The notes: generated by a model not told the origin, from the letters alone. Shown: positions 4,648 to 55,914, numbered from the stretch's first letter. The stretch: DNA of 61,987 bases from Eubacteriales bacterium (GCA_045533775.1 JAZSIK010000054.1:1-61987); one strand, 5' to 3'. Numbers and translations are program-made.

Positions 4648-5637
4648 CTACGAATTAAGTAAAACGTACCCCTCTTTTGTATGCTCTATTTTATATTCCA
4701 GTTCAATTAGATCCTTTATGGAATTACCTATCGCTTTTCTATGTATGGTCGTACCGTTAAACCTCTTTTGCACTCTCTCGATAATCTCGGATTGCTGAAG
4801 GGGGTTTTCAGCGTCTTCAAGAATTTGCAAAATCATTATCGGATATGCGCTTGTTCCAAATTTAATATTCTTAGGTGCGGTTTTTCCCTCAAGGGAGAAG
4901 CCGCCTTCTTTTTTTATTATAACGTATCCGAGATCACGGAGCAGTTTAATATGTCGATATACCGTGCGCATTGACATGGGAGCCTTCTCCCCTACACCGT
5001 ATGCATCTTCGTACTCCTCGTCATCCTTATAGTTTTCGGGATTTATATGATACCCACTCTTTAGCTCTGCGAGAATCATAATGGGATTCGAGCGTCCACC
5101 CGTACATAATTTTTTGTAAATTTTTATCGAAAGCGTGTCTTCATTATATTTATACGTTTCGTTTTCGTCCCCCGCAAGTATAAGATTTGTTTCTATGGCA
5201 GGCAAGTCACATTGCTCGAAACAACCGGTGTTCATCCAGTCATTGCCGTCACCTATGCAGGCGAAAAACTCATCCTCTTCAAAGTATTCATCGGGACTTT
5301 CATACACGTAATTGGTAGCATCATCGTCTTCATCCAAATCATCACCGAATATCATTCCTGCGGGTGCCTGTTCCTCATAATCGTTTGCATCACCCGAGGG
5401 AATGTCTGCTTCTGTATACGGAAAGTGTGGGTCGTTAAAATACTTTTCGAAAAAGTCAGCAATGGCAGTGCGATATTTCTTGCGATGACCGTTTCTTAGA
5501 TCATCGAGATACTCCGGTGCTTCGGAGTGTTTTGAGATAAGCTTTCTTGCAAACAGCTTTGCGCTGTTAAAGCTTTCGAAGCTTCTCGTTTTTTCTTCTT
5601 CCAACGTTTCGTATTCGACTATCCATATTTTTCTCAT
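4648..5637 (-). CDS. Putative transcriptional regulator with an acidic N-terminal half and two winged-helix-like segments
   Basis: ATG 5637 preceded by gagg. Winged-helix-like segments MRTVYRHIKLLRDLGYVIIKKEGGFSLEG and YPIMILQILEDAENPLQQSEIIERV. The upstream 44 codons of the track ORF were trimmed. Confidence 0.5.
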   Translation of the reverse strand: MRKIWIVEYETLEEEKTRSFESFNSAKLFARKLISKHSEAPEYLDDLRNGHRKKYRTAIADFFEKYFNDPHFPYTEADIPSGDANDYEEQAPAGMIFGDDLDEDDDATNYVYESPDEYFEEDEFFACIGDGNDWMNTGCFEQCDLPAIETNLILAGDENETYKYNEDTLSIKIYKKLCTGGRSNPIMILAELKSGYHINPENYKDDEEYEDAYGVGEKAPMSMRTVYRHIKLLRDLGYVIIKKEGGFSLEGKTAPKNIKFGTSAYPIMILQILEDAENPLQQSEIIERVQKRFNGTTIHRKAIGNSIKDLIELEYKIEHTKEGYVLLNS

Positions 5638-5931
5638 ACAGAACCTCAAAATTGTATTTTGTTTTATTATACTACAAATGAATCTGCTTTTCAAGAGAAT
5701 GTGACGTTTTTGACAAAATCCATGTGTTATAATCTTCTCGCAAATGCTCAAACACCCCAAATTACACAAAAAACATCCATCTGGCTATACCATTTTCTGT
5801 GTCAAAAACGTCACGCGTTTGTATTTGATAAAATAAAACCCCCGTGTTATACTCATTAAAAATTGATCTTTGACAACACAAATAACATCTTTATAAATCA
5901 TCACTTTATTAATTTATTGAAAGGAGAAAAA

Positions 5932-6393
5932 ATGGAAGAAAACAAATTTGGTATTGTATTTATTGGTGGAAGCGAAACGATTGGCGCACTTCCCGAAAAC
6001 GCAGTCGCCTGGCTTGACCACTTTATAGGAGCAAATGAACGTTTTATAATAGGTGACTGCTTTGGTTCGGATCTTGCTCTGCAAAATTATCTTAATTCAC
6101 GAAAATATCAAAAAGTTACAGTGTATTATTCAGGTGATCGGTGTCGGTTTAACGTTGGTGAGTGGGAAGCTGTGCGAGTTGCGTTAAAACCCGAGGAAGC
6201 TATGATAGCGGAATGTAACTGTGCGTTTCTAGTATGGGATGGCTTCTCTAAAGAAACTAAAAGCAGTATAGAAAACCTTAGACAAAATGGGTTGCCAATA
6301 TTTATATACCGAACGGATCTTGACAAGCTACGTGTAGTAAGAAGAAATTGCAAATTAAATAGTGAAAAAACTGAAAAGGAGAAAACTGTATGA
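5932..6393 (+). CDS. Small Rossmann-like protein (SLOG/DUF2493-like or nucleoside 2-deoxyribosyltransferase-like)
   Basis: SD aaggag. Motifs GIVFIGGSE, IIGDCFGSD and FLVWDGFSKETKSSIE..GLPIFIYR. The stop overlaps the next start (ATGA). Confidence 0.4.
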   Translation: MEENKFGIVFIGGSETIGALPENAVAWLDHFIGANERFIIGDCFGSDLALQNYLNSRKYQKVTVYYSGDRCRFNVGEWEAVRVALKPEEAMIAECNCAFLVWDGFSKETKSSIENLRQNGLPIFIYRTDLDKLRVVRRNCKLNSEKTEKEKTV

Positions 6394-7100
6394 ACAACAA
6401 GCTTTTTATTAAGAGAGGTGCTAAGACGGTTGGAGTATGCGCTTATCAGGATAGGACGGATATTGCTACGGTACGAATACCCGAGGGAGTAAGGTGTATC
6501 GGTAACGGTGCTTTTTGCAGATGCGCATCGCTTTGCGACGTTTCTCTTCCTAATAGCCTTAAGATGATCGGTGAGATGTCATTTGCTGCTACAAATATCA
6601 AAGACATTATAATTCCGGATAGTGTAGAGCTTATAGAAAAACGCGCGTTTGCTTTTAATCCCGAACTTCGCACGGTGTATATCGGGAAATCCGTGAAATA
6701 CATAATGCCCGGTGCATTTTCGGGCTGTGAGAAGCTTGAAAGAATAACAGTTTCTCACCAAAACGACTACTACTATGTACAAAACGGCTGTCTTATAGAT
6801 AAAGAAACAAAGAAGCTTATAGTCGCATGCTATCCTTACATTGTGCCGGATGGAGTTAAAACAATCGAAGAGCAGACGTTTATGTTTCTTCTTAACTGCG
6901 ATAGAATAACCTTCCCCACAAGCGTCGAGCACATAAATATGGAGGGTGATCCTATTAAGAATTTTGATATGTGCCGCTATGTTGAATATGACAGGCGCGG
7001 TGAGGTAATGCTCGAAAAACCGATGAAAATAAAATCACCGAAAGGCTCTTGTGCGGCAAGGTTTGCTAAAGAACAAAATATTAAATTTGAGGAGATATAA
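6390..7100 (+). CDS. BspA-type leucine-rich-repeat protein without a signal peptide
   Basis: Repeating IP.SV..IG..AF..C..L units. C-terminal KGSCAARFAKEQNIKFEEI motif shared with the 19380 and 20152 ORFs. Confidence 0.8.
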   Translation: MNNKLFIKRGAKTVGVCAYQDRTDIATVRIPEGVRCIGNGAFCRCASLCDVSLPNSLKMIGEMSFAATNIKDIIIPDSVELIEKRAFAFNPELRTVYIGKSVKYIMPGAFSGCEKLERITVSHQNDYYYVQNGCLIDKETKKLIVACYPYIVPDGVKTIEEQTFMFLLNCDRITFPTSVEHINMEGDPIKNFDMCRYVEYDRRGEVMLEKPMKIKSPKGSCAARFAKEQNIKFEEI

Positions 7101-7102
7101 AA

Positions 7103-7498
7103 ATGGAGAACCAGATTATAGTTTTTGTCGGTAGAGGTACAAGCGGATTGAAAGAAATGCTCACCGATTATATGTGCGTTCGTGAGTTTAAGCACGAAAG
7201 AAAAGCGGGTGATCCTTGCCTTTCGGAATCCGATTTTATTCTTTACTCCCTCGGTCGCAGGTATGAGGGTGGCTTTATTGATGAGATATCGGTAGGTTGC
7301 GACAACGGTGAATATGAGCCTATTGTGTTTGATGATTTTCTTAGCAGAGTCGATGAAGCGATAGATATTAAGCCTTATTTTGAAGAGCTGCTTGAGCTCG
7401 GTGTGCCCATCTTCTATTTCGCAGAGCATGAGAGCAGCGTTGAGCGCATGAGTGAAAGCGGTTTGCCGCTTGTAATTTACAGAAAGAGCAAAAGTTAA
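7103..7498 (+). CDS. Hypothetical protein, distant paralogue of the 5932 ORF
   Basis: IIVFVGRGTSG at the N terminus. ELGVPIFYF and GLPLVIYR at the C terminus echo GLPIFIYR of the 5932 ORF. Confidence 0.4.
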   Translation: MENQIIVFVGRGTSGLKEMLTDYMCVREFKHERKAGDPCLSESDFILYSLGRRYEGGFIDEISVGCDNGEYEPIVFDDFLSRVDEAIDIKPYFEELLELGVPIFYFAEHESSVERMSESGLPLVIYRKSKS

Positions 7499-7514
7499 TA
7501 AAAGGAGTAAAAGA

Positions 7515-7862
7515 ATGACAACAGCAAATAAAGAACTTGTTCTTCTTGACGTGGATGATATTGAAGAGGCGGTGGCGGCATACTTCGGAGAAGAAGTATG
7601 CCTCGGTGAAATGGAATGTATATTAACCTATTTTATTCCTATGGACGAGGGAATTCCAAAAGGCATGGTATTTGATATTTTAGTTCATGAGAAGTCGGTA
7701 GATGCCTTCGATTTATTTATGGACGATGACGATTCCTGTGCCTATATTTACAAGGATAAAGAAATCAGCTTGAATGAAGCGTTCCTTGAGCCGAAAGATA
7801 TTTTCAACTTTGACACAAAGCTTTTCAAGTCTTTCAAAATCGATACAGATTCGAGCGATTAA
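7515..7862 (+). CDS. Hypothetical acidic protein
   Basis: 115 aa, SD aaggag, Asp/Glu-rich. Confidence 0.5.
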   Translation: MTTANKELVLLDVDDIEEAVAAYFGEEVCLGEMECILTYFIPMDEGIPKGMVFDILVHEKSVDAFDLFMDDDDSCAYIYKDKEISLNEAFLEPKDIFNFDTKLFKSFKIDTDSSD

Positions 7863-7906
7863 TAAAGCTTGGGACGTTAAAATTTAATTAAGGGGTTAAG
7901 AACAAA

Positions 7907-8473
7907 ATGTTCAAATATTTTAACGCTAACCCATGCGGCAAAGTCGTCGGAGACTGTGTAATAAGAAGCATATCCGTTGCAAGCGAGACCGATTACAGAG
8001 AAGTCAGGCGCGCGCTCAACAAGCACAAAAAGCTGACGGGGGCAAATAGCTTTAATAGTAATAGAAATCCCAACAGATACGTTGAGGACGTATTGTGTGG
8101 AGAGAAAATCGTTTTCAAGAAGAAAATGATAGCTAAGGAGTTTTGTGAAAAATTTCCAAGTGGCAGTTATATTCTTGATATGGATGAGCACTGGAGCTCC
8201 GTTGTTAACGGCATAGTTTACGATACCTGGGATTGCAGTAGTGAAACTGTGAATTTTGCATACAAAATAAAAGCCGATAACTGTAAAGCTCCGGACCTAT
8301 CACGGCAAAAGCTTTGCTACTGTTGTACGAGCGAGAAGGTATCTGATACGGAAAGCTGTATTCGCATTTACGATGGGAATAGCACGTTTGTTGAACGGCA
8401 TATTCCCATAGAGCTGGTCAAGGGTTATGTACGCTGTCTTGAGGATCAGCATTATACTTACGTAGAAACATAA
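7907..8473 (+). CDS. Hypothetical protein (possible papain-like Cys/His arrangement)
   Basis: NPCGKVVGDCVIR ... DEHWSS ... YDTWD. The spacing is compatible with a Cys-His-Asp peptidase fold. Speculative. Confidence 0.3.
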   Translation: MFKYFNANPCGKVVGDCVIRSISVASETDYREVRRALNKHKKLTGANSFNSNRNPNRYVEDVLCGEKIVFKKKMIAKEFCEKFPSGSYILDMDEHWSSVVNGIVYDTWDCSSETVNFAYKIKADNCKAPDLSRQKLCYCCTSEKVSDTESCIRIYDGNSTFVERHIPIELVKGYVRCLEDQHYTYVET

Positions 8474-8484
8474 GGAGAAATATT

Positions 8485-9273
8485 ATGAAAGTAGAAATAC
8501 ATTCGAGAATGTCAATTAAAAAGCTTATGGGTGAGGGATTCCCCAAAAGCACCGCAGTTATCAGCTTTTATACTCCGCAGAAAATGAGGCGCGCGGAAGA
8601 CATTCGCATAGATTATTCTGGTGTATGCGACAAGGTGTTTTATATAGCAGTTCCCGATATAGACCTTAAATGCCTTTCAGATTACGGTTATACTTACGAT
8701 ACTTATATCGAAGATACTAAAGGACTTGCGGAATTTATATATGAAGCAAATAATAATGATATGGACATTATCTGTCAGTGTGATTTCGGGCAGAGCCGAA
8801 GTGCAGCCTGTGCCGCCGCGATACTCGAGCATTTTGAAGAGAGAGGCATCGAAATATTTGCAGATTACAAATATTATCCCAACCAACTCGTATATCATAA
8901 AATTTACGATGCCCTTAACAAACATTTAAAAGAATCGGCAGACGGAGAGCCGTCTGCGATAGATCCTAATAAAGAATACACATTTGAAGAGGTTGTATCA
9001 ATGCTTCCTGCGGAAACGGAAGAAAGTCGCATTATCGATAAATTTATGCTGCATCTTAAAAAATCTCTCGAATTTATAAAGACGGCAGAGGAGTTTAAAA
9101 CTGTTGATATGCAGCGCTACTTAAAATGCGGATACGGTGACACATGTCGTATTCTTGATGCGCTCGTATTGTTTGGTGTAATTATGGAAACTGAGAATAC
9201 ACCGGTTAGATACAAGGTTGTTTTGAAAGGAGAAAACAGTGCAGGATCCCGCAATAAGAAAGATATTGGTTGA
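8485..9273 (+). CDS. Cx5R phosphatase-like domain fused to an FtsK-gamma-like winged helix
   Basis: CQCDFGQSRSAA contains a C-x5-R P-loop in a COG5350-like context. The C-terminal MQRYLKCGYGDTCRILDALVLFGVI resembles FtsK gamma (VQRRFRIGYNRAARIIEQME). Confidence 0.55.
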   Translation: MKVEIHSRMSIKKLMGEGFPKSTAVISFYTPQKMRRAEDIRIDYSGVCDKVFYIAVPDIDLKCLSDYGYTYDTYIEDTKGLAEFIYEANNNDMDIICQCDFGQSRSAACAAAILEHFEERGIEIFADYKYYPNQLVYHKIYDALNKHLKESADGEPSAIDPNKEYTFEEVVSMLPAETEESRIIDKFMLHLKKSLEFIKTAEEFKTVDMQRYLKCGYGDTCRILDALVLFGVIMETENTPVRYKVVLKGENSAGSRNKKDIG

Positions 9274-12200
9274 ATATCTTAAAATCAAATATAAAGAGCA
9301 CCGTCTATACCAGGAAAAAAGCATAGGTTTTTCTGTTTGTGATGTAATGCTGGTAACCGACAGACTTATCGGTTTTGAGATAAAAAGCGACAAAGATAAC
9401 TATGCCCGTTTAAACTCACAGGTGAAATCCTACGAGGAGTATTTTGATGAAAATTATATCGTAGTAGGTGAAAATCACAAGAAGAGTATCGAAAATCAGA
9501 TCCCAAATGAATGGGGAATCATACTGGTTACCGAGGGAAATATATCAGAGCTGCGTAAAGCACGTAAAAACAAGAATGTTGACAGAGAGTGTCAGTTATC
9601 GTTGCTCTGGAAAATAGAGCTTAAAAATATTCTTATAAAGAACAGACTACCTCTCTATGCTGCAAAGGATAAGGATTTTATTATTTCAAAAATAGTTGCT
9701 GCTGTACCAAAGGATACGCTCATGCATCATATTGCGGACGAGCTTATGAACAGGGATTACAGCGAATATGAATCAAATCTTTTTTACAAATCTCAGACAG
9801 CAGAGGAAGAAAACTCTATACCGCTTGATTTTCGAGCTGATGAGTTGATAGATATGCTTTCCGAGAGGGATCTTGCATCATTTACCCTTGATAAATGGAT
9901 GGCTATATATCAGAGGGCTATTCTAGCGAAGGATGTTAAGGAAAAGGCAACTCAAGAATATGAAGAAAGGCGAAAAAAGGACTCTCAGAAAATTATTCAC
10001 AGAACGCCATACACTGAAATAGAGGTATCTCTTGGCGTGCCGTGGATCAGCGCAGATATTATATCCGATTTTATAAAAGAGGTCTTTAAAGTCAAGCCTT
10101 ACGTTTCCTATATTTACGACAACGTAACCAGAACGTACATCCCCGGAAACAAGGAAAGAGCGCTTGTGGAACACGAGCCTATTACAGGCTATTGGTACGT
10201 TTGTAAGAACGTAAGCTCTGCGGGTGAAATATTTACTACATACGGAACGAGACGAATAAGCGCCTTACATATACTCGAGTCAACGTTAAACCTCAGAGAT
10301 ATAAAAATTCACAACGGCACAGAGTACGACGAGGTTGAAACTATCGCCGCACTTGAAAAGCAGAAAGCAATAAAAGATGCTTTTAAGGAGTGGATATGGA
10401 AGGATGAAGATAGGAAACTTGAGGTTGCCGATGCATATAACCGAATTTTTGGAAAATACGAGGTTGTAAGCTACGACGGTAGCGGACTTAAATTTGTCGA
10501 TATGAATCCCAATATCAAGCTCTTTGATTACCAGAAGAATGCCGTTCAAAAGATAATATCTACTCCTAACACGCTCCTTTCCTTTGATGTGGGTTCAGGA
10601 AAAACCTATATTATGATAGCCGCAGCTATGGAGATGCGTAAATCAGGACTTTCAAGAAAAAATCTCTTCGTAGTTCCTAACAACATTGTAGGTCAGTGGG
10701 AACGAATGTTTTGCGAGCTTTACCCACAGGCTAAGGTGTTGACGGTCGAGCCTAAATCATTCACCCCCGAAAAGAGAGGCAAGGTGCTTCGACAGATACA
10801 GAAGGAAGATTACGACGGAATAATTATGGCATACAGCTCATTTGAAATGATTCATCTTTCATCAGATTATATTTCGAAAAGCATGGGAAACGTGATATCC
10901 GAACTGCAAAAGCGTATGGCAAAATTAAGCCGAGACAATCACACCTCAACCAGCATAAGCCGCGAGGTCGAGCGTGTACGTAAGGTTATCTGCGAGCTTA
11001 CACAGTGCATTTCGGAATCTACCGACGGTATCTTTTTTGAGGATTTGGATATAAACACTCTGTTTGTTGACGAGGCGCACAATTTCAAGAACATTCCTAT
11101 TAGAACCACTATGAAAAATCTGAGAGGAATAAATACAGGGGGTTCGAAAAAATGCCTTGAAATGCTTGAAAAAGTGCACTGCGTTCAGGAAATGAACGGT
11201 GGTCGCGGAGTGGTTTTTGCTACCGGTACACCACTGTCCAATTCTATATCCGACACATACGCAATGCAGTGTTATCTTCAGTATAATGACCTTGCCGAAA
11301 ATGAACTGCAACGCTTCGATAACTGGGCAAAAACCTTTGCAGTGATAGAGGATGTATGCGAGATAGACGTCAATGCGGCAAGCTTTCGTATAATCAAGCG
11401 TTTTACAAAGTTTCACAACCTGCCGGAGCTTTCGCGCATGTTTTCGGGGGTTTCCATCTTTCATAGTGTTAGTAAGGACGGTTTGCCCGAGCTTCTCGGA
11501 TATACCGATGACGTAATAGAGAAAAGCCATGGGCTTGATGACTATATGAAGGAAATATACGAGCGTACCGAGCGTATACGCAATGGAGATGTAGACCGAA
11601 AGAAAGACAATATGTTGAAGATTAGTACTGACGGAAGAAAGGCAGCTCTTTCTCTTAATCTGGTGGGTAAAGAGCAGTTTTATGACGAGTATAGTAAGGT
11701 TTATTGCTGTGTTAAAAACGTAGCGAGAATCTATAATGAAACTCCCGGTAGCTCCCAGCTTGTTTTCTGCGACTATTCCACACCGAAGGGCGCATCGTAT
11801 AGCGTGTATAAGGAGATGAAGGATCGCCTTGTTGAATGCGGGATTCCAAAAAACGAAATAGCCTTTGTCCATTCCTGTAAGACCGAGGATGAAAAAATAA
11901 AGCTTTATGATGATGTAAACGCAGGACGTGTGCGTGTGCTTATAGGTTCTACCTTTAAGCTTGGAATTGGAGCTAACGTGCAAACAAGACTAAAAGCAAT
12001 ACATCACCTTGATGTGCCGTGGCGTCCTGCTGATATGGTGCAGCGAGAGGGCCGTATTCTGCGCCGCGGAAACGAGAATAAGGAAATAAACATTTTCCGA
12101 TATATTGTGGAAGGCAGCTTTGATTCTTATTCTTGGCAGATTCTTCAGACAAAGCAACACTTTATATCGCAGTTTCTCGGTGGAACAAGTAATGTAAGAA

Positions 12201-12859
12201 GCATTGAGGATCTCGAAAATGATGAGCTGAATTATGCGCAGGTAAAGGCGCTGGCACTTTCCGAGCCGCTTATGAAGGAATACGTTGAGAAGGAAAACGA
12301 GATTCGCAATGCTCGTATGGTATACCGACAAGAGCTTGCGCAAAAGGAAAGAGTAAGAACCGATATAAAAGAAACGGAGCTTAAAATCACAGAAGCAACG
12401 ACAGAACTCAGGCTTACAGTAGAAAACGATGAATACGTAAAGGCGAATATAGCCGCAATTACTGAGCAAATTCCAATACTCGCAGAAACCTTGATAACCT
12501 GGCAGAAAAACAAAAGCGATGATGGACGGATAGGTAAAATTTCAGAGTTCTCTGTTTTAGCATCAAGACACAAAAACGGCAACACGTTTCTCGTTCTTTC
12601 GCGCAACGGAATCAATTACTATATGGAAGCGAGCGACTCTTTGTCCGGAAATAAAAAGCGTATCAATAATTTCTTTACTAAGTTTGATAAGCAGATTGAG
12701 GCGAAAGAACATACGCTTAATGAGCTCAAAAAGAAAAAGCTCGAATTAACAGAGCAGTGTGAGTATTCATCGGATATAGTAGATACGATCAAGCGACTCG
12801 AAAGCGAGCTTAGGCACATATTTGCAGAGCTTTCAGTAAAACAGGAGGAAGCAGCGTAA
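9239..12859 (+). CDS. PD-(D/E)xK (sce7726/MmcB-like) N-terminal module fused to an SNF2-family helicase
   Basis: GTG start with SD aggag, overlapping the upstream gene by 35 nt. N terminus CDVMLV...GFEIKSD. Helicase motifs DYQKNAV, DVGSGKT, DEAHNFKN, ATGTPLSNS and HHLDVPWRPADMVQREGRILRRG. C-terminal coiled coil. Confidence 0.85.
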   Translation: MQDPAIRKILVEYLKIKYKEHRLYQEKSIGFSVCDVMLVTDRLIGFEIKSDKDNYARLNSQVKSYEEYFDENYIVVGENHKKSIENQIPNEWGIILVTEGNISELRKARKNKNVDRECQLSLLWKIELKNILIKNRLPLYAAKDKDFIISKIVAAVPKDTLMHHIADELMNRDYSEYESNLFYKSQTAEEENSIPLDFRADELIDMLSERDLASFTLDKWMAIYQRAILAKDVKEKATQEYEERRKKDSQKIIHRTPYTEIEVSLGVPWISADIISDFIKEVFKVKPYVSYIYDNVTRTYIPGNKERALVEHEPITGYWYVCKNVSSAGEIFTTYGTRRISALHILESTLNLRDIKIHNGTEYDEVETIAALEKQKAIKDAFKEWIWKDEDRKLEVADAYNRIFGKYEVVSYDGSGLKFVDMNPNIKLFDYQKNAVQKIISTPNTLLSFDVGSGKTYIMIAAAMEMRKSGLSRKNLFVVPNNIVGQWERMFCELYPQAKVLTVEPKSFTPEKRGKVLRQIQKEDYDGIIMAYSSFEMIHLSSDYISKSMGNVISELQKRMAKLSRDNHTSTSISREVERVRKVICELTQCISESTDGIFFEDLDINTLFVDEAHNFKNIPIRTTMKNLRGINTGGSKKCLEMLEKVHCVQEMNGGRGVVFATGTPLSNSISDTYAMQCYLQYNDLAENELQRFDNWAKTFAVIEDVCEIDVNAASFRIIKRFTKFHNLPELSRMFSGVSIFHSVSKDGLPELLGYTDDVIEKSHGLDDYMKEIYERTERIRNGDVDRKKDNMLKISTDGRKAALSLNLVGKEQFYDEYSKVYCCVKNVARIYNETPGSSQLVFCDYSTPKGASYSVYKEMKDRLVECGIPKNEIAFVHSCKTEDEKIKLYDDVNAGRVRVLIGSTFKLGIGANVQTRLKAIHHLDVPWRPADMVQREGRILRRGNENKEINIFRYIVEGSFDSYSWQILQTKQHFISQFLGGTSNVRSIEDLENDELNYAQVKALALSEPLMKEYVEKENEIRNARMVYRQELAQKERVRTDIKETELKITEATTELRLTVENDEYVKANIAAITEQIPILAETLITWQKNKSDDGRIGKISEFSVLASRHKNGNTFLVLSRNGINYYMEASDSLSGNKKRINNFFTKFDKQIEAKEHTLNELKKKKLELTEQCEYSSDIVDTIKRLESELRHIFAELSVKQEEAA

Positions 12860-12902
12860 TTGTGAAAATTATCATAAAAGAAAAATATATTCGGAGGTTG
12901 AA

Positions 12903-13703
12903 ATGATACTTAAGTTTAACGAATATATTCCTGCGGTTTTTACGGAAGATGATCTTGAATCAGAATTGCTTGGCGAGTATATCAAGCTTGACGGCACGAG
13001 TCTTATATCCATATGCTCCCGTCCCGGTATGGGTAAGACCGCGTTGGCTCTTAACTTGGCGCTCGACTTTGCAAGAAAAAGCGAAAAATGCGTGTATATA
13101 TTTTCTTATGAAATGACAGCGGAACAGGTTTATGCAAGACTGTTGTCTATATTATCCGGAGTAGACCTAAATAGCATAACGAAACGCATTTTTTCGAAGG
13201 AAGAACTCAAATTACTTAATGACAGTATGGAGTTTATTAAGAGGCTGAATATTATTATCGACGATGATACCTATAACGGTATTTCGGATATGGAAGAGAA
13301 AATTTCAAGGATAGATAATCTTGGAATGATTGTCGTAGATTATCTGGGGTTGATGTTCCCAAGAGAAAATTGTTTGGATAATTATAAAGAAATCGCAACG
13401 CTTGATATGAGAAATCTGTCTCGGAAATTCTCCGTTCCCATATTCTTTACACACAAGCTATCAAAGCGTTTGGAATATCGAAAAGATAAAAGACCTAATA
13501 CAAGTGATGTTGAAAGCTATATAGCACAAAATACGGATACCATGGTTCTGCTTTACCGCGAAGACTACTACCGTGACGGTATTGATAACGAGCGAACGAA
13601 CTTAGCCGAGGTCACAACCTCGAATAAACTCGGGAAAAACGGCACTGTTTGTCTTAATTGGGATGGAGAGTGTATGAAATTTGAAAAGCACGAGGTGAAT
13701 TGA
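12903..13703 (+). CDS. DnaB C-terminal-domain (RecA-like) ATPase lacking the DnaB N-terminal domain
   Basis: SRPGMGKTALALNLAL (Walker A), YEMTAEQV and MIVVDYLGLM. Only 266 aa. Confidence 0.75.
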   Translation: MILKFNEYIPAVFTEDDLESELLGEYIKLDGTSLISICSRPGMGKTALALNLALDFARKSEKCVYIFSYEMTAEQVYARLLSILSGVDLNSITKRIFSKEELKLLNDSMEFIKRLNIIIDDDTYNGISDMEEKISRIDNLGMIVVDYLGLMFPRENCLDNYKEIATLDMRNLSRKFSVPIFFTHKLSKRLEYRKDKRPNTSDVESYIAQNTDTMVLLYREDYYRDGIDNERTNLAEVTTSNKLGKNGTVCLNWDGECMKFEKHEVN

Positions 13704-13704
13704 C

Positions 13705-14580
13705 ATGCTTGGAGCAATTGTTGGTGACGTTCTCGGATCATCTTACGAATTTGAAGAAATGAAATTTGACTGGGTTATGCCTCACAATGAAAATTTGAAA
13801 GATATTCCGTTATTCAATGAGGATGACCAATTTACAGACGATACCGTCTTGACATTAGCTGTTGCGGATTGGTTATTGCATGATATTCAGAAGGATTACT
13901 ACGATGATGAAAAATTAAAAATTGCTTTAGGAAAACGTATGGTTTGGTGGACGCGATTTTATCAGGAACGTGAAATTGCTTACGGTCTTTCTTATATCGA
14001 TTTTTTCTATCGTGCAGAGCTGATACAAGAATACGTACCGCAAAGTAGTTGTGGAAACGGTTCTGCAATGAGAGTTAGCCCTGTTGGTTGGTTTTTTGAT
14101 ACTATGGAAGAAACAATGCGGTTTGCCAAGATTTCAGCAGATGCTACACACAAGCATCCTGAAGGTCAAAAAGGGGCTATGTGTATTGCTGCTGCCATAT
14201 ATTTAGCTCGAAAAGGTAGCAGTAAAGACGAAATCAGAGATTATCTAATACGAGCTTTCGGGTATGAAAAATTAGATAAAGATGTATTAGATTTACGAAA
14301 AAACTATGTGAGAGTTTGCACGTGTCAAGATACAGTTCCCGAATCGGTTGTGTGCTTTTTGGAAAGTGATGATTATGAGTCTGCGGTACGTCTGGCTATC
14401 TCTTTTGGAGGAGATACCGACACTATGGCGGCGATGGCTGGCAGTATAGCTGAGGCGTATTACGGACAAGTTACACCCGACCTGTTTTCATACGCAAAAG
14501 GGAAGCTAACCTCTGAAGCACTCGAGCTTTGCAAAGAATTTTACAAACGAATAAAGAACTGTGAGGGACAAAATGAATAA
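13705..14580 (+). CDS. ADP-ribosylglycohydrolase (ARH/DraG family)
   Basis: GAIVGDVLGSSYEFE, DDTVLTLAV, CGNGSAMRVSPVG and GGDTDTMAAMAGSIAEAYYG. Start 1 nt after the upstream stop. Confidence 0.88.
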   Translation: MLGAIVGDVLGSSYEFEEMKFDWVMPHNENLKDIPLFNEDDQFTDDTVLTLAVADWLLHDIQKDYYDDEKLKIALGKRMVWWTRFYQEREIAYGLSYIDFFYRAELIQEYVPQSSCGNGSAMRVSPVGWFFDTMEETMRFAKISADATHKHPEGQKGAMCIAAAIYLARKGSSKDEIRDYLIRAFGYEKLDKDVLDLRKNYVRVCTCQDTVPESVVCFLESDDYESAVRLAISFGGDTDTMAAMAGSIAEAYYGQVTPDLFSYAKGKLTSEALELCKEFYKRIKNCEGQNE

Positions 14581-15244
14581 TTTCGATACTCAAATTGAAA
14601 TGCTAGTAACGAAGCCGCTAGGATTTTCTCCTGTTGTGATAATTGGAAACGTGGGAAGCGGCAAGACATATTTTCTTGAGAAATATCGTGAAAAACGAAA
14701 TAAGTTTTACAAGCCCGCGTTTGGTGAGTGGGGCGCAGGTGAAGGCGCAAAGATATTTAATGCTGATGAGATTTGTCAAAAAATAATTGACTCTATTGCT
14801 AATGGCAACGGGAAATCGTGGAGTAAAATATTTGCTTCGGTTAATGTAATAATCATAGACGATTTTGATAAGTTGGCTGGAAAAACCACCACCCAAGAAA
14901 TGCTCTTTTCTTACTTTTTAACATGCAAAAAGGCTATTGTTGTGAGCTCGAAATCAGAAATTGCAGGAGAAGGCTTCTTGGAAGAGCTTAGCTCGTTTTT
15001 GTCAACAGGTGCGCACATATATATCAATGATCCGGATAAAGAATCAAAATTCGATTTCCTTGTAAACGGCTTATGTACCGCAGGAATACAAATGGAAAAT
15101 GAAGCTCTTGTATGGCTTTCAAATCAGAATTTTATATCTTATGCTGCCACAAAAGGATTTGTTAAAACTTTACGGCTATTTACAACCGGCGAGCCATTAT
15201 CTCTTTCGGATTGCATTAAGTACACAAAAGGTTATATCAATTAA
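14573..15244 (+). CDS. DnaA-domain-III-like AAA+ ATPase (initiator or helicase-loader type)
   Basis: ATG overlaps the ARH stop (ATGAATAA). VVIIGNVGSGKTYF Walker A. IIIDDFDKLAGKTTTQEMLFSYF resembles DnaA [20 protein letters not shown]. Confidence 0.65.
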   Translation: MNNFDTQIEMLVTKPLGFSPVVIIGNVGSGKTYFLEKYREKRNKFYKPAFGEWGAGEGAKIFNADEICQKIIDSIANGNGKSWSKIFASVNVIIIDDFDKLAGKTTTQEMLFSYFLTCKKAIVVSSKSEIAGEGFLEELSSFLSTGAHIYINDPDKESKFDFLVNGLCTAGIQMENEALVWLSNQNFISYAATKGFVKTLRLFTTGEPLSLSDCIKYTKGYIN

Positions 15245-15259
15245 GGAGAACCAGCTATA

Positions 15260-16147
15260 ATGAACGCACTTGACTTTATAAACTCGCGCGATGTCAGAGC
15301 GCATCTTGAAAAGATAGGCTGGCAACCCGATTCGCTCTGCGCTGCGTGGCTTATTTACCAAAGTAAAAACCACACACTTGAAGAAAAGCTTCTTGCGTGG
15401 CAGAGTGTTATAGATAATATGCCGGATTGTGCAGTGCCCGAGAACTATTCAGGTACGTATCACGAAAGCTTACACACGTTTCTGAAAAGATATATTGAGC
15501 TTCAGCACAAGCTTGTTAACTCGTTCAAAAAGTGCAACACGGGAGAGGTTTATTCCTATAAATATTATGGCAAGAACTGTGACGGATTCCTCTCCGACGG
15601 GGGACTTTACTCAAGCTATGAAAAGGTTATGGAAGCTATGAACGAAGAGATATGTGAGGAATACAAGCCTTACGTCTTCAGGCTTACGAAGCGCAGAATA
15701 GATAGTCCCGAACTTGACGTGCACGCTGAGCTTTCGCCGGGACTCGAAATCCGTTCGATTGTCGATATGACCGCTATGATGCTAGGCGAGGATGACGAAG
15801 GGGATATTGAGGTGCTCTTCCGCGTATTCGAGGGAATGTGGTTTGATATTCCTACCCCGTTTTGCCGTGGCGACCTTGTCCGCGAGTGCGGCGGCAAATA
15901 TCACGTCCCTTCAAATTATCGCCAGGAAACGCTTGTTTTTGACTCCATGACAGCGAATAATGAAAACTCCCCTCTTGCACAGGAAAAGGAGGATATGAAC
16001 GCCTATGGATATTTTCCCGACGGTGATGGCGGGGTTTATTACGGATGTGCATTTAATTATATAAGCCTTGAATTTATAACCCCCAATCAGCTCACACCAC
16101 AGGAGGCTATACTGACCTCTCTACCCGTTTTTATCAATAAAATGTAA
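15260..16147 (+). CDS. Hypothetical protein (295 aa)
   Basis: SD aaggag. Sits in the operon between the AAA+ and PolC-like genes. No domain recognised. Confidence 0.5.
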   Translation: MNALDFINSRDVRAHLEKIGWQPDSLCAAWLIYQSKNHTLEEKLLAWQSVIDNMPDCAVPENYSGTYHESLHTFLKRYIELQHKLVNSFKKCNTGEVYSYKYYGKNCDGFLSDGGLYSSYEKVMEAMNEEICEEYKPYVFRLTKRRIDSPELDVHAELSPGLEIRSIVDMTAMMLGEDDEGDIEVLFRVFEGMWFDIPTPFCRGDLVRECGGKYHVPSNYRQETLVFDSMTANNENSPLAQEKEDMNAYGYFPDGDGGVYYGCAFNYISLEFITPNQLTPQEAILTSLPVFINKM

Positions 16148-17488
16148 ATGAAAGTAGGCAAAACAATGGATGATGCATTAAAAAATAAAATTATAAACAC
16201 AAAAATCAATGAGCGCAAAAAGCTTATGAGAGAGCTGTGGAAAAAGGCGGAGGATGCTTTGAAGGCATTATACGGAGATATGCCCGACATGCGAATATTG
16301 AATCGCTTTTACACTGAAAAGATGATTTTCGGCGAGACCGATAGCGTGATTTTATGGGATCTCGTCGCAGAAACAATACATCAGGCAAAGGAAAAAGGAT
16401 ATACAACCACGATTGCAGGAACAGATGGCTCCTGCTTTACAGCATATCTTCTCGGTATGTGTGAAAATCCCCTGCCGCTTCACTACTTGTGTCCAGTATG
16501 CAAGAAAACCGAGTTTATAAACGAGCGTGCGCTGCCTTGGGATATGCCAAACAAGCCTTGCGAGTGCGGTGGCGTGATGCGAGCAGATGGTTTTGACATT
16601 CCTTTTGAAACGCATATCAGAATGGCGCACAGGCCTTGGCCAAATGTTTGTGTTAACCCGGCATTTATGGAAGAAGCAAAGCAAATTGTGAGAAAAAAGG
16701 TGGGCGGTTTGTATCGAATCTGCACGCTCACCAAACCCGACTACGCCCCGGTGAAATTCGTCTTTCTCCCCTTCAACGGAGAATCCGAGTTCGAAGAACA
16801 TGTTGATACAGTAGACGGTAAGTACGACGATTTCCCGCGCATAACGATAATACCGTTTGATTTGTACGAGCGTAAAGCGCGATTGTGTGAGGAAACGGGG
16901 GAAAACTTATTTGAAGGCATTCTTTCTAAAAAGGTCCTTTCCGATCCTCGTATTATAGAGGCATTCGCAAACGGCGATACAGATAATATACCGAATTTCA
17001 CGTCAAAATTCCTTGATATGAAAGAAGCGCTGCGCCTCGCCTCACCGAAGAACTATTATGACCTCTTGCAGTTTATGGGCGCGATGCACGGCACAAACAC
17101 CTGGTGCAATAATGCCGAGTGTCTGATCCGTGACGGAATATGCTCTATCGGAGATATCCCCACTCACAGAGATGATGTGTTTATGCTTCTTCGCGACAAG
17201 CTTCGAGAAGCCGGACACGAGGACGTCGGTATAGCGTATAATCTCGCTATGAAGATTCGTTACGGCATTTCTGCAAACAGAGGTATTAGTGCAGAGGAAC
17301 TCGCTTTACTTGATTACCTCGACCTGCCCGAGTGGTTTATCCCCTATGCCGAAAGAATACAGTATATGTTCTCGAAGGCGCATAACATAGAAAGCCTTCG
17401 CATAGCTCTCACGTTTATGTGGTATAAAATAAATTATCCGAAAGAGTTTGATGCTTGTGTAAAATCGAAGCTTAAGGATCATATTTGA
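16148..17488 (+). CDS. Truncated PolC-like protein 1 (zinc-finger, partial palm and fingers segment; catalytic Asp motif absent)
   Basis: GSCFTAYLLG..NPLPLHYLCPVCKKTEF...CECGGVMRADGFDIPFETH, HGTNTW, HRDDVFMLL and LPEWFIPYAERIQYMFSKAH all match PolC motifs. PolC has PDIDLNF where this ORF reads WPNVCVNPAF. Confidence 0.7.
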   Translation: MKVGKTMDDALKNKIINTKINERKKLMRELWKKAEDALKALYGDMPDMRILNRFYTEKMIFGETDSVILWDLVAETIHQAKEKGYTTTIAGTDGSCFTAYLLGMCENPLPLHYLCPVCKKTEFINERALPWDMPNKPCECGGVMRADGFDIPFETHIRMAHRPWPNVCVNPAFMEEAKQIVRKKVGGLYRICTLTKPDYAPVKFVFLPFNGESEFEEHVDTVDGKYDDFPRITIIPFDLYERKARLCEETGENLFEGILSKKVLSDPRIIEAFANGDTDNIPNFTSKFLDMKEALRLASPKNYYDLLQFMGAMHGTNTWCNNAECLIRDGICSIGDIPTHRDDVFMLLRDKLREAGHEDVGIAYNLAMKIRYGISANRGISAEELALLDYLDLPEWFIPYAERIQYMFSKAHNIESLRIALTFMWYKINYPKEFDACVKSKLKDHI

Positions 17489-17513
17489 TTATTTTAAAAA
17501 GGGTGTATTAAAG

Positions 17514-18779
17514 TTGAATAAAGAAAAAACAAAACTTATAGAAAAAATTTGGCAAAAGGCGGAAAAAGCACTTTATGCCTTATACGGTGATATGCCGGAT
17601 ATTCAAATACTAAACCGCTTTTATAGCGAGAAAATAGCTTTCTGTGAGACCGATAATATAATTATTTGGGATCTTGTCGGAAATATTTGCAGCGAGGCGT
17701 TGTGCCTTGATTATAATGTAAGACCCGTTGGCACTGTCGGATCTTGTTTTACGGCGTATCTTTTGGGAGCATCAATAAACAATCCCTTGCCGCTTCACTA
17801 TCACTGCTCAAGCTGCGGTTGCACCGAATTTGTAGATAAAAGCAATGCACTCCCATTTGATATACCGAGTAAAACTTGTGCTTGCGGTGGAGTGATGTGT
17901 CCCGAAGGATTTGATATCCCGTATGAAATGGACATATCCGTTTCGCACGCTCCACATACATCGCTTTGGGTTTCACCGGGATTTTTAAAAGAGACAAAAC
18001 GAATGGTTTTTGAACGAATGAAAAATCATTACTGCGTCGGAGAATTATCGAATGATATGGGTTATACGAAATTTGCCTTTTTGCCTAAGAATTCCAAAGC
18101 TCATTTTAATGAAAAAGTTGATGTTACAGATGACAGGTATATTATTTTCCCATCACTGACTGTAGGAGATAACCCGCTCTTCGACAAAGCCGAGAAGTTA
18201 ACCGAGAAAACCGGTGTTGATTTTTATGAAATTTATTCCTCTAATTGCAAGGATTATCTTTCGGATGAAAAAATCGTTCGAGAATTTGCATCGGGAAATA
18301 TAGACGGAATCCCCCCTTATTGGAAAGAACCAAGATACAATAACATGAAGGATGTCTTAAAATTTGTCAATCCACAAAGCAGTTATGAACTTTTGAAAGT
18401 TTATAGCGTGTTGCAATGTTCGCGCACATGGGTGGAATACTGCGAAACTTTGCTTCTTAGCGGTGTTTGCATTGCAGATATCCCTACAACAATAGAAGAG
18501 GTGTTTATGCTAGTTCGTGACAAATTAGGATATAGTGGCGCGAGCATTGCCTGCGAGCTGGCAAACAAGATTTGTTATAACAAGCTTGATGCAAATGCAC
18601 TTGCGATACTTTCATTACTGGATCTTCCGAAATGGTTTATTACATACGCCGAAAAAATGAAGTTTATACATGATAAAGTGAGAATGGTTGCTTTCTTGCG
18701 CGAAGCTCTCGCATTTATGTGGTATAAAATAAATTATCCCGAGGCGTTTAAGGAAATTATGCCGAATGATGGATTGTAA
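17514..18779 (+). CDS. Truncated PolC-like protein 2 (paralogue of the 16148 ORF)
   Basis: TTG start. Same motif series: GSCFTAYLLG, NPLPLHYHCSSCGCTEF, CACGGVMCPEGFDIPYE, LPKWFITYAEK and FMWYKINYP. Reads HTSLWVSPGF at the PolC catalytic position. Confidence 0.65.
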   Translation: MNKEKTKLIEKIWQKAEKALYALYGDMPDIQILNRFYSEKIAFCETDNIIIWDLVGNICSEALCLDYNVRPVGTVGSCFTAYLLGASINNPLPLHYHCSSCGCTEFVDKSNALPFDIPSKTCACGGVMCPEGFDIPYEMDISVSHAPHTSLWVSPGFLKETKRMVFERMKNHYCVGELSNDMGYTKFAFLPKNSKAHFNEKVDVTDDRYIIFPSLTVGDNPLFDKAEKLTEKTGVDFYEIYSSNCKDYLSDEKIVREFASGNIDGIPPYWKEPRYNNMKDVLKFVNPQSSYELLKVYSVLQCSRTWVEYCETLLLSGVCIADIPTTIEEVFMLVRDKLGYSGASIACELANKICYNKLDANALAILSLLDLPKWFITYAEKMKFIHDKVRMVAFLREALAFMWYKINYPEAFKEIMPNDGL

Positions 18780-18780
18780 T

Positions 18781-19086
18781 ATGGATAAAACAATTAGTGA
18801 ACAGATAAAAGCTGTAATAGAAGATACTATATCACGGCTTCAAGAGGAAGGCGTAGAGGATATTCGAAAAACGGTAGAATATCTTGAATACGGCTTCAAG
18901 GTTGTGACCTGTCCGATATGCGGTAACGAAACGCTCGATATGTTTTGGGTATGTCAGCATTGCGGTTGGGAATACGATTATTTCTTGAATGAAAATGAAG
19001 AATCACTATCAAACGGCGTAACCATCGCCGAATACAGAGCCGAATATAAAAAAAATATTAATAATAAATCTACAGAAAGGAGATAA
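18781..19086 (+). CDS. Cysteine-rich CPCC-type domain protein
   Basis: CPICGNETLD..WVCQHCGWEYD...NGVTIAEYRAEY. ATG directly after the upstream stop. Confidence 0.6.
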   Translation: MDKTISEQIKAVIEDTISRLQEEGVEDIRKTVEYLEYGFKVVTCPICGNETLDMFWVCQHCGWEYDYFLNENEESLSNGVTIAEYRAEYKKNINNKSTERR

Positions 19087-21100: not shown

Positions 21101-21478
21101 ATGAAAGATTTTGAAAGCAAATTGCCAAAAATAAAAGAAATGATCGCTGAAAAGCTCGAAGCATTAAGGGTTCCGAAACGACTTAAGGGATACGATTATC
21201 TTGTAAGCGCAATTCTTTTATTAGTAGAGGATTCCGATTACATATTGAATAAAGAAAAGCTTTATTCCGAGGTTGCACAAAAGCACAATAGTACAATGTT
21301 AAGCGTTGAAAAATGCATAGAACGAGCTGTCAGCGAAACACTTGCTAACGGAAATAAATCTGAGCTGGACAAATACTTTGGTTACACAATAGCAAACGGA
21401 AGCACTCCGTCAACCTCAGAATTTGTGGCAATGATATCGGATGCGATAAGGTTGGTTTTAAAATATCAATTGCTTTGA
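21101..21478 (+). CDS. Stand-alone Spo0A C-terminal (DNA-binding) domain protein with no receiver domain
   Basis: KGYDYLVSAILL...LYSEVAQKHNSTMLSVEKCIERAV...FGYT...PSTSEFVAMISDAIRL is colinear with Spo0A [54 protein letters not shown]. Confidence 0.85.
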   Translation: MKDFESKLPKIKEMIAEKLEALRVPKRLKGYDYLVSAILLLVEDSDYILNKEKLYSEVAQKHNSTMLSVEKCIERAVSETLANGNKSELDKYFGYTIANGSTPSTSEFVAMISDAIRLVLKYQLL

Positions 21479-28519: not shown

Positions 28520-29395
28520 GTGAAAGCATTTAGAGATTATCAACCAGAAGAACGTAGAAATTACATAACATTATCAACAGGCGAATATTACCCAGATATT
28601 TTAGAGGATGCTTGCAGATTGTATTCTTCTGTATTAGAAACTTTCTCTCAATTACTCAATCGTTCCGAGAGTTCTAGTGCATTGTTTATGAATATCTCTG
28701 CTGTTCCTACTCAATGGATGAGAATCCAATTATGTAGAGTGTTCAGAAAATATGTGTCTCCCGAAACTCCAGTTGAGATGTTAAAAAAGAAGTCACAAGC
28801 TAAAAGGATCTGCGAAGATTTTGGAGACGGGTTCCGTCCTATCCATATAGTACAAGCAAAATTTGATTCTCGCCCTATGCCCGATGAGGCACTTTGTGCA
28901 GTTCTCTGGGAGTACAAGGATAGAGGTAAAAAAGGTTATGATTTAACCGACAAATTTTTTGATATGATTCAAGGAAAATTTCCCGATTTGAGCATCTGGG
29001 GTCCACGTGGTGCCGGTGCTGATGTTCAAGCAAAATCCATTTGGAGCGATTATCCAAACAATAGCAGACCTCTTGATTTCGTTATATCCTCCGATGATAA
29101 AAAAATCATCTATGCCGTCGGTTTGGCAAGATATGATGGAGACCGTGGAGGAGCGCAAGAGGATGATAGGACTGGCGGTTATAAGAACTGCGCTGATGAA
29201 GTTTTGGAATATGTACACTCTCATGGCTTGAATACAAAGGTTATTTTCTTGAATGACGGACCTGGGTTGCTCCTTGGCTCAATGTGGGAGGACTATTCTC
29301 GAATTGAGGAACGACACCCGAACGAAGTTAAGGTTATCACTCTGCGAATGATCGAGGAACGACTCACAAAATGTTGGTTAAAAGGAGAAGAGTAA
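28520..29395 (+). CDS. Putative type II restriction endonuclease (family not identified)
   Basis: GTG start with SD aggag. The stop abuts the methyltransferase ATG. Possible PD-(D/E)xK region PLDFVISSDDKKIIYAVGLARYDG. The call is mainly positional. Confidence 0.5.
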   Translation: MKAFRDYQPEERRNYITLSTGEYYPDILEDACRLYSSVLETFSQLLNRSESSSALFMNISAVPTQWMRIQLCRVFRKYVSPETPVEMLKKKSQAKRICEDFGDGFRPIHIVQAKFDSRPMPDEALCAVLWEYKDRGKKGYDLTDKFFDMIQGKFPDLSIWGPRGAGADVQAKSIWSDYPNNSRPLDFVISSDDKKIIYAVGLARYDGDRGGAQEDDRTGGYKNCADEVLEYVHSHGLNTKVIFLNDGPGLLLGSMWEDYSRIEERHPNEVKVITLRMIEERLTKCWLKGEE

Positions 29396-30655: not shown

Positions 30656-30786
30656 TATGTTTCCAAGAACCGAGTCGCCAGTTTAACTAATGATGACTTG
30701 TGCCGAAATTTAGGGACAAATGATGATTTCCACCTATAAAATGAGACTTTTTGGAGTTTCCACCCCCGTTTTTGACCTATTTTGAG

Positions 30787-30835
30787 ACCTTTTGGAGCCC
30801 CCACCCACGTGGAGAATGTGGTGTGTATTGAGAGG
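30787..30835 (+). repeat. Repeat R2 copy b
   Basis: accttttgg...cgtggagaatgtggtgtgtattgagagg runs into the SD of the Mrr-type gene. Confidence 0.55.
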
Positions 30836-30842
30836 ATATAAA

Positions 30843-55469: not shown

Positions 55470-55622
55470 GCTAACAGAAAGGAAAAAATATGAAAAAAAA
55501 GGATAAAAGTGTATATGCAGACCTCAGTATTAACAAAATTACTGCCCCCAATAAAAGCACTAAAGAGCCTGCTGGCAAGAAAAAGGTCGGCGGAGACTTC
55601 AGAATCAAGGGAGGTAAGTGAT

Positions 55623-55889: not shown

Positions 55890-55914
55890 AAAGCAAAAAA
55901 GAAAGGAAAAAACT

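Follow-up and report, generated by a model that had tools for sequence, protein, structure and literature searches.

An optional ADP-ribosylglycohydrolase cassette on a Clostridia island: a candidate orphan eraser in ADP-ribosylation conflict

Why would an enzyme that removes ADP-ribose be packed between two genes that look like parts of a replication module? The question is raised by a stretch of 61,987 nucleotides (nt) from a Eubacteriales bacterium (GCA_045533775.1 JAZSIK010000054.1:1-61987), which was analysed at its full length and which we call the window. On a low-GC island in this window an ADP-ribosylglycohydrolase (ARH) gene lies between a gene for an ATPase resembling the C-terminal domain of DnaB (DnaB_C) and one for a DnaA-like AAA+ protein. 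We believe, with about even confidence and on the strength of sequence comparisons, that the island ARH is an orphan eraser, an optional accessory gene used in conflicts that are fought by ADP-ribosylation. What leads us there is an intact hydrolase under selection, a position that couples its expression to its neighbours, the lack of a detectable writer, the gain and loss of the gene as a cassette, and the conflict genes found next to its relatives.

An optional cassette at an intergenic junction

The three genes, and the insertion that sister islands define among them, are as follows.

12903..13703, + strand: DnaB C-terminal (RecA-like) ATPase, 266 amino acids; Pfam DnaB_C 1.3e-47, profile positions 18-254 of 255
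13705..14580, + strand: ADP-ribosylglycohydrolase of the ARH/DraG family, ARH3-like, 291 amino acids; Pfam ADP_ribosyl_GH PF03747 2.2e-41
14573..15244, + strand: DnaA/Hda/DnaC-like AAA+ ATPase, 223 amino acids; Pfam Bac_DnaA 3.7e-10, NCBIfam DnaA 1.1e-15
13704..14572, + strand: ARH cassette, an insertion when compared with sister islands that lack the ARH, as read from the junction in sister island L188

The initial annotation described three open reading frames (ORFs) joined almost without gaps, with the ARH in the middle, and we find the genes and their junctions where it placed them. Read from the sequence, the first junction is TGAcATG: the DnaB_C stop TGA occupies 13701-13703, the single base C13704 follows, and the ARH ATG is at 13705. 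At the second junction, ATGAATAA, the AAA+ ATG (14573-14575) comes before the ARH stop TAA (14578-14580) and the genes overlap by 8 nt. Shine-Dalgarno-like GAGGTG and GAGGGA precede the ARH and AAA+ ATGs, each lying within the preceding gene. An ORF list gives a GTG at 14561 as the AAA+ start. We reject it, since all homologues begin MNN(Y/F)D and the ATG stands directly after the DnaB_C stop in ARH-less islands, so the ATG at 14573 is the real start. The ARH is placed for translational coupling to the DnaB_C-like ATPase upstream and to the AAA+ protein downstream, and because of this position it should be made whenever the operon is expressed. The operon consists of 14 co-directional ORFs, the ARH among them, running from 5863 to 19086, the spacing between them being -35 to +44 nt. 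Tight packing is therefore a trait of the whole array and is not specific to the ARH and its two ATPases.

It is important to be clear about what these ATPases are. The DnaB_C-like product matches the NCBIfam DnaB model at 8.7e-50, its 169.8 bits standing against a cut-off of 385 and the match being limited to positions 195-433, and it falls in PHROG 243/19, DnaB-like helicase. It lacks the DnaB N-terminal domain, and so it does not have the N-terminal domain, linker and C-terminal domain that together make a DnaB replicative helicase. Both Walker motifs are intact, A being GMGKT (residue 42) and B being VVDY (residue 144). The AAA+ protein is DnaA domain III alone, without the DNA-binding domain IV, and has a weak PHROG match to a DnaC-like loader; its Walker A is GSGKT at residue 28 and its Walker B is IIIDD at residue 93.

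The initial annotation treated the trio as a unit whose conservation in related elements would bear out its proposal and whose sporadic occurrence would count against it. The occurrence is sporadic, and by this standard its proposal in the strong form is refuted. Our sample holds eight architectures anchored on the SNF2-type helicase gene that lies just upstream of the trio, together with about 40 loci carrying close relatives of the ARH, many of which belong to one gut lineage; these are metagenome assemblies. The helicase, fused to an sce7726 domain, is the backbone gene of the island family, and the slot that concerns us lies between it and a conserved gene that we call g15260. The order DnaB_C, ARH, AAA+, g15260 recurs in L104 only, where the ARH is 91% identical. 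L001 and L002 (ARH 90% identical) have SNF2, ARH and AAA+, with a remnant of about 30 nt from the 3' end of DnaB_C before the ARH, and from this we conclude that DnaB_C was lost there secondarily. The order in L003-L006 (ARH 67% identical) is Toprim primase, a phosphatase-like gene directly upstream of the ARH, ARH, DnaB_C and SNF2.

Other sister islands lack the ARH. L187 (SNF2 91% identical) and L188/L189 (72%) carry SNF2, DnaB_C, AAA+ and g15260, and L188 has a recombinase 95% identical to that of the window. L195-197 (SNF2 93%) have the phosphatase-like gene, SNF2, a g15260-like gene and a PolC-like gene, and are without DnaB_C, ARH and AAA+. All three genes are missing from this place in L190/191, L192, L193, L194 and L198/199 (SNF2 52-62%), where no ARH lies within 10 kb; L193 and L198/199 have a divergent DnaB_C-like ORF upstream of SNF2. 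The ARH is absent from 8/8 independently sampled SNF2-anchored architectures, and several of these lack both ATPases as well.

The insertion can be read from the comparison with L188. There the DnaB_C stop TAA abuts the AAA+ start ATGAATAATTAC, giving the junction TAAATGAATAATTAC, and the window has the ARH between the same flanks. The ARH is optional, a cassette some 870 nt long that was placed exactly at an intergenic junction. The slot between SNF2 and g15260 (12860..15259) is empty in L195-197 and holds DnaB_C-AAA+ in L187/L188, DnaB_C-ARH-AAA+ in the window and L104, ARH-AAA+ in L001 and a leucine-rich repeat (LRR) gene in L190. The DnaB_C and AAA+ genes are themselves optional, and the 'replication module' is not a fixed unit. 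We do not think that sporadic presence opposes a role in conflict or counter-defence, since accessory genes used in conflict tend to be gained and lost. We also considered whether the cassette is foreign in composition and rejected the idea, its GC content being 0.397 against 0.37-0.46 in its neighbours.

An intact ARH3-like hydrolase and the neighbours of its relatives

The ARH scores 142.9 bits against PF03747 (cut-off 26.2), with residues 1-254 covering profile positions 3-280 of 287, and it matches PHROG 6572 at 5.9e-54. The hallmark residues that the initial annotation had pointed to are in place. E15, T44-D45-D46, T148-H149 and D237/D239/T240 are invariant in an alignment of 20 homologous sequences that are 46-89% identical, and alignment to ARH3 shows the Mg-binding Asp and Thr residues to be intact: E15 falls on the catalytic Glu of the YE motif, T44-D45-D46 on TDD(T), and D237/D239/T240 on GGDTDT. 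The matching residues of human ARH3 are E41, T76/D77/D78 and D314/D316/T317, which hold two metal ions. ARH3 (ADPRHL2) and the window ARH have in common the fold, the binuclear metal site and the YE, TDDT, TH and GGDTDT motifs. They differ in that ARH3 is about 350-365 amino acids long, against 291 for the bacterial protein borne on a mobile element, and they are about 25% identical.

Searches of known structures agree. By phmmer against the PDB the best relative is ARH3 (1.2e-19). Lmo0067, MJ1187 and an ARH of Thermus come next, and the matches to Tri1 (6e-06) and the Arg-specific DraG (4e-05) are only distant. Built on 30 homologues, the AlphaFold2 model is all helical with a pLDDT of 93.8, and Foldseek returns ARH3 structures at the top (E 5e-12, TM 0.70-0.75, about 0.72), DraG having a TM of 0.74. 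The profile, the metal and catalytic residues and the all-alpha fold all place the protein in the ARH superfamily. Its scores against the NCBIfam equivalog models lie far under their cut-offs, at 60 vs 337 bits for DraG and 48 vs 490 bits for Tri1. The gene is under purifying selection: dN/dS is 0.11-0.13 between the window copy and relatives 88-91% identical to it, and is higher, 0.20-0.33, for the flanking ATPases. From alignment and model we predict that the ARH is catalytically competent, an ADP-ribosyl hydrolase that resembles ARH3 and depends on metal.

No writer was found to go with this eraser. Among about 30 island proteins there was no match to an ADP-ribosyltransferase (ART) or to DarT in searches by sequence profile, with Pfam for all and PHROGs, NCBIfam and PADLOC for subsets. 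The DarT domain from a distant relative's locus (L145), used as a tblastn probe, found no DarT-like sequence in the island or the window. Divergent ARTs could be hidden among the island proteins that match no family. The ARH has no adjacent cognate DarT, the neighbour that marks a DarG-type antitoxin.

The family is very large, with 7641 of 8000 scored candidates at E <= 1e-10, and its members are often stand-alone chromosomal genes. In a rough neighbour-joining tree drawn up without support values, the window ARH groups with copies 52-90% identical, nearly all of them in island-type contexts. Among these copies the gene is found in several unrelated settings. In 21 human-gut loci (among L090 and L107-L128; for example L127 8959..10849) an ARH 56-60% identical to ours lies 43 nt after a protein of 332-415 amino acids which belongs to the PADLOC candidate defence family PDC-S02 (6.8e-40) and has no Pfam match or PDB sequence match. 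This pair ends the conserved block of an LRR-rich island, and the flanks beyond it are variable. In L007 (8943..10840) a retron-type reverse transcriptase (RT; PADLOC RT_Ec107-like 7e-119, RT_III-A 4e-97) runs 1 nt into the start of an ARH that shares 55% identity with ours. Inverted repeats typical of retron non-coding RNA lie upstream of this RT-ARH pair, where Rfam finds no retron RNA; the locus may be a retron with the ARH as an accessory gene. In L008 the ARH follows a PolC-like gene.

Genomes, metagenomes and viral contigs together gave 141 loci with more distant ARHs, 40-47% identical. Their recurrent neighbours are an NrtR-type regulator that joins a Nudix domain to a winged helix-turn-helix (33 loci), a vWA-containing protein (34 loci), a microbial-type PARG and tandem ARH paralogs. 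A DarT-domain protein lies near the ARH in 13 of the 141 (L140-L146, L148, L152, L158, L160, L161, L167), which form four sub-lineages of 75-100% identity with ARHs about 42% identical to the window's. The order on one strand is DarT-domain protein, NrtR, small ORF, ARH, vWA protein and TPR-aspartyl protease (L145 6539..14130, for example). The DarT-domain protein is 669 amino acids long, lies about 1.5 kb upstream of the ARH and carries its DarT domain at the C-terminus (Pfam 2.4e-19, 70 bits; motifs LYHFT and QAEVLI). In gene content such a cluster resembles a DarT system that has an eraser of ARH type together with a regulator sensing ADP-ribose. The tree separates the window's clade from these DarT-linked ARHs.

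The family also reaches phages and plasmids. The cultivated Bacteroidales phages Porphyromonas phage005b (L200 5001..5783) and Bacteroides phage Versailles (L201 5001..5774) encode homologues of 35-41% identity, in both cases as the penultimate gene of an early/accessory block just before structural genes of opposite orientation. Further homologues occur in very large uncultured phage genomes and in large Clostridium plasmids. An apparent fusion of an ARH to an autotransporter (L132) is probably an artefact of assembly or ORF calling and was left out.

The island around the cassette

The island covers about 1.8-24.5 kb of the window (~23 kb) at a GC content of 0.36-0.43, compared with about 0.50-0.55 further right, and the usual chromosomal genes start at about 24.9 kb. 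Its other features that matter here are these.

274..1797, - strand: large serine recombinase at the island's left edge; Pfam Resolvase, Recombinase, Zn_ribbon_recom
5825..5853, + strand: promoter-like site before the 14-gene array, TTGATA-17-TATACT with TG extension, 10/12 matches, by consensus match only
8485..9273, + strand: cysteine-phosphatase-like protein with a C-terminal FtsK-gamma-like winged helix-turn-helix; weak Pfam DSPc and FtsK_gamma, PHROG 5614
9239..12859, + strand: sce7726 (PD-(D/E)xK-like) domain at the N-terminus, joined to an SNF2/ResIII helicase; 1206 amino acids
15260..16147, + strand: g15260, conserved protein after the variable slot; no family match (Pfam, PHROG, PADLOC, NCBIfam)
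16148..17488 and 17514..18779, + strand: two paralogous PolC-derived proteins of 446 and 421 amino acids; NCBIfam PolC 1.8e-48 and 1.5e-20, far below cut-off

No convincing terminator was seen on the + strand within the array (5863..19086). The sole regulator-like gene encodes an HTH_11 protein (4648..5769) on the strand opposite to the operon. We saw no virion or conjugation genes in the island.

The helicase fusion matches NCBIfam sce7726_fam at 1.2e-42, above its cut-off, together with Pfam ResIII, SNF2 and Helicase_C, and its best PHROG is 10089, DarB-like antirestriction (1.9e-194). It has 1232 homologues at E <= 1e-20; nearly all of the 120 listed are ~1180-1230 amino acids long with the same Pfam domains. 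The end of the phosphatase-like gene overlaps the start of the helicase gene by 35 nt. Its product has a CX5R-S motif, CDFGQSRS, at residues 99-106 and an upstream Asp in VPDIDL, and the motif is kept in L001 and L003-6. The gene is two genes upstream of the ARH in the window and directly upstream in L003-6, and it also accompanies SNF2 in ARH-less islands: homology upstream of SNF2, with or without an ARH, is full-length in L190/L191 and L195-197 and is a piece of ~100 amino acids in L188/L189. We considered this gene as a partner of the ARH and rejected it on the grounds of its co-occurrence with the helicase in ARH-less islands.

Homologues of g15260 are found in L001, L104, L187, L188, L190 and L195, and in every close relative the gene comes after the variable slot. 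The PolC-like pair follows it in most sister islands. Both paralogs keep palm and finger segments and lack the palm catalytic aspartates, the PHP domain and the exonuclease parts. Aligned to G. kaustophilus PolC (3f2b), the first has PNVCVN in place of the palm PDIDLN, and a pairwise alignment of the two paralogs puts HTSLWVS at that position in the second. Judged from these alignments they are probably non-catalytic relics of a polymerase. The operon further holds BspA-type LRR proteins and a CPCC zinc-ribbon protein. Beyond it, at 21101..21478, lies a gene for a stand-alone Spo0A C-terminal (DNA-binding) domain without a receiver domain, of which L187 has a 94% identical copy.

The island family is rich in conflict-type cargo. 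Sister islands carry GmrSD (L190), a type I restriction-modification system (L194) and McrB (L193). Close to the SNF2 helicase they have genes for WYL, DUF2779 (Cas4-like) and AAA-protease proteins, along with one or two for phosphatases of the calcineurin-like (Metallophos) type (L187 7853..9276, L193 4031..5442, L001 436..1131). By megablast, 9239..19086 of the window had no match in phage and plasmid collections. Scans of IMG/VR with the ARH and the SNF2 helicase, as single sequences and as alignments, gave only distant matches of 31-57% identity, and the island family is essentially absent from that database. A scan of GTDB genomes gave ARHs of 52% identity or less, none with the window's neighbours; the close relatives are from metagenome assemblies.

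Elsewhere in the window, a second low-GC islet (28520..32042, GC about 0.37) has an N6/N4 DNA methyltransferase (29396..30655) and a protein with an Mrr-type restriction endonuclease domain (30792..32042). There is a thymidine kinase at 45304..45882. A phage-like packaging and head cluster lies about 28 kb from the island at 52393..56982, with a terminase large subunit (52393..53754), a weak match to an SU10-type portal (53751..55469) and a weak match to a major head protein (55915..56982).

What would be erased, and for whose benefit

We favour the reading in which the ARH would remove ADP-ribose that a foreign transferase has placed on macromolecules of the island or of the cell. The transferase would be a DarT-type or other ART toxin of the host, or an ART of a competitor or a phage. 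The protected process would most plausibly be DNA replication, since the ARH sits among helicase-type genes, and the substrate would then be replicating DNA or replication proteins. The eraser could work in either of two directions, as counter-defence by the island or as host defence cargo against phage ARTs.

The closest precedent in concept comes from T4-like phages, whose orphan erasers AdfN (NADAR, anti-DarTG1; PMC11825919) and AdfM (macrodomain, anti-DarTG2; 10.1101/2025.11.20.689424) undo the ADP-ribosylation of DNA by DarT. Like them, the window ARH is an eraser without a writer, on a mobile element, within an early or replication-type gene block and sporadic among relatives. The differences are that AdfN and AdfM have NADAR and macro folds instead of the ARH fold and belong to lytic phages instead of an integrative island, and that the window ARH is known from sequence alone. 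Our literature search found no paper that places an ARH-type eraser on an island of this kind or beside DnaB_C or AAA+ genes.

Several points weigh against an orphan eraser for conflict. The functional argument for the ARH is drawn wholly from genomic context. Characterised ARH enzymes cleave O-glycosidic ADP-ribose linkages or N-glycosidic linkages to Arg, and we know of no ARH-fold enzyme shown to take base-linked ADP-ribose off DNA. DarT accompanies the ARH in just 13 of the 141 distant loci, all in one lineage on a branch apart from the window's clade. The neighbours of the close relatives, PDC-S02 and the retron RT, fit defence at least as well as they fit counter-defence. Stand-alone chromosomal copies are common, which leaves room for a possible role outside conflict, and the adjacency to the ATPases may be the incidental use of a permissive insertion slot.

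The best of the more specific alternatives is that the ARH is defence cargo, shielding proteins of host and island from phage ARTs or taking part in, or regulating, a defence module on the island. We regard this as a tentative possibility. The neighbours of the close relatives, PDC-S02 and the retron-type RT, point to it, and so do the GmrSD, type I restriction-modification, McrB and WYL genes of the sister islands. It also has a parallel in the ARG-centric conflict systems, with phosphatase, restriction endonuclease and helicase partners, that were predicted by Iyer, Burroughs, Anantharaman and Aravind in 2022 (PMC9503650). Like the hydrolases of those systems, the window ARH has no coupled ART or sirtuin that we could detect. 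Distant family members cluster with NrtR-type Nudix transcription factors, vWA proteins, PARG and tandem ARHs much as in the published predictions, and the window's operon contains a cysteine-phosphatase-like gene and a restriction endonuclease-helicase fusion. The parallel is incomplete, however. The Nudix or WYL sensor regulator that stands beside the hydrolase in ARG-centric systems is missing from the window's operon, NrtR being found only with distant members. The phosphatase and helicase appear to be tied to each other and not to the ARH, the phosphatase-like gene staying with SNF2 whether or not an ARH is present. The hosts of those systems are actinobacterial, planctomycete and proteobacterial chromosomes (PMC9503650), whereas ours is a mobile island of Clostridia. 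The ARG-centric systems are themselves predictions, and PADLOC gives no match for the ARH.

One alternative that the initial annotation raised was counter-defence against DarT-type toxins. At the replication fork the ARH would free single-stranded DNA of the island from base-linked ADP-ribose, as AdfN, AdfM and DarG do, possibly with the help of the DnaB_C and AAA+ proteins. Taken alone we consider this unlikely, although, given the PDC-S02 and retron neighbours, it and the defence-cargo alternative are about as likely as each other. At the level of the family the idea has gained support. A DarT-domain protein lies in conserved order about 1.5 kb upstream of the ARH in the 13 loci described above, and the DarHTG defence system combines DarT and a UvrD-type helicase with an ARH-like antitoxin, DarG3, which could not be cloned when mutated (PMC13069673). 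DarG3 and the window's family have in common an ARH-like fold linked to DarT, and there is a helicase in the system. The likeness to DarG3 is by description only; the window has no DarT, and its helicases are of DnaB_C and SNF2 type. That the window ARH is an orphan between helicase-type and loader-type genes also fits. For the window itself the idea fares less well, as its clade is apart from the DarT-linked clade in the tree (about 42% identity), no DarT was found in the window, adjacency to the ATPases is not conserved, and the point made above about DNA-base chemistry in ARH-fold enzymes bears on this alternative as well. The fully specified version, in which the ARH travels with a minimal DnaB_C helicase and AAA+ protein and with them strips DarT-type base-linked ADP-ribose from the island's replicating single-stranded DNA, is somewhat less likely still.

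Two further alternatives seem to us quite improbable. The ARH might hydrolyse a soluble molecule derived from ADP-ribose, such as the cyclic ADPR made by TIR proteins (at its O-glycosidic ribose-ribose bond) or O-acetyl-ADP-ribose, and so blunt immunity based on nucleotide signals. ARH3, the closest solved relative, cleaves O-glycosidic ribose-ribose linkages and O-acetyl linkages, and orphan accessory ARHs do occur on mobile elements and phages. However, no TIR, Thoeris or sirtuin gene was linked to the ARH in any locus viewed, the literature search gave no report of such an ARH, and it has been argued that these hydrolases prefer macromolecular adducts (PMC9503650). We give equally little credence to the idea that the ARH has no part in conflict and is a passenger of housekeeping type, cleaning up spontaneous or metabolic ADP-ribose adducts from a permissive intergenic slot. 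The size of the family and its many stand-alone chromosomal members are compatible with this. A passenger would not lead us to expect such strong purifying selection on the island copy, nor that the copies on mobile elements form one clade in the rough tree which recurs in several island positions, nor that conflict genes repeatedly adjoin the ARH.

The weakest alternative, which the initial annotation had rated equal to counter-defence, is that the ARH reverses ADP-ribosylation of the island's own DnaB_C or AAA+ proteins as a replication switch like DraT/DraG; the ARH does adjoin both ATPases and is placed for translational coupling with them, but we disfavour this strongly since no writer was found in the island and the ARH assorts independently of the ATPases, sister islands keeping DnaB_C-AAA+ without ARH, ARH-AAA+ without DnaB_C, or none of them, and the same ARH clade occurring far from any such ATPase. 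DraT/DraG and Tre1/Tri1 have erasers of the same superfamily, and unlike them the window ARH has no adjacent writer.

We return to the orphan eraser and what it would mean. Bacteria, phages and mobile elements widely use ADP-ribosylation of DNA, RNA and proteins as a weapon in their conflicts. Both the concept of an orphan eraser and the ARH enzyme family are already known, and phage counter-defence by orphan erasers has been shown for NADAR and macrodomain folds only. The window ARH is a candidate for a third eraser fold, on an island of gut or rumen Clostridia. Sister islands with and without the cassette, which have exact junctions in common, are natural controls, and the DarT-domain protein, PDC-S02 and the retron RT beside family members are natural candidates for partners. 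If the ARH does act against DarT, it would be a third, structurally unrelated anti-DarT class after NADAR (AdfN) and the macrodomain (AdfM, DarG2-like), and the first anti-DarT factor of the ARH fold to be borne on a mobile element.

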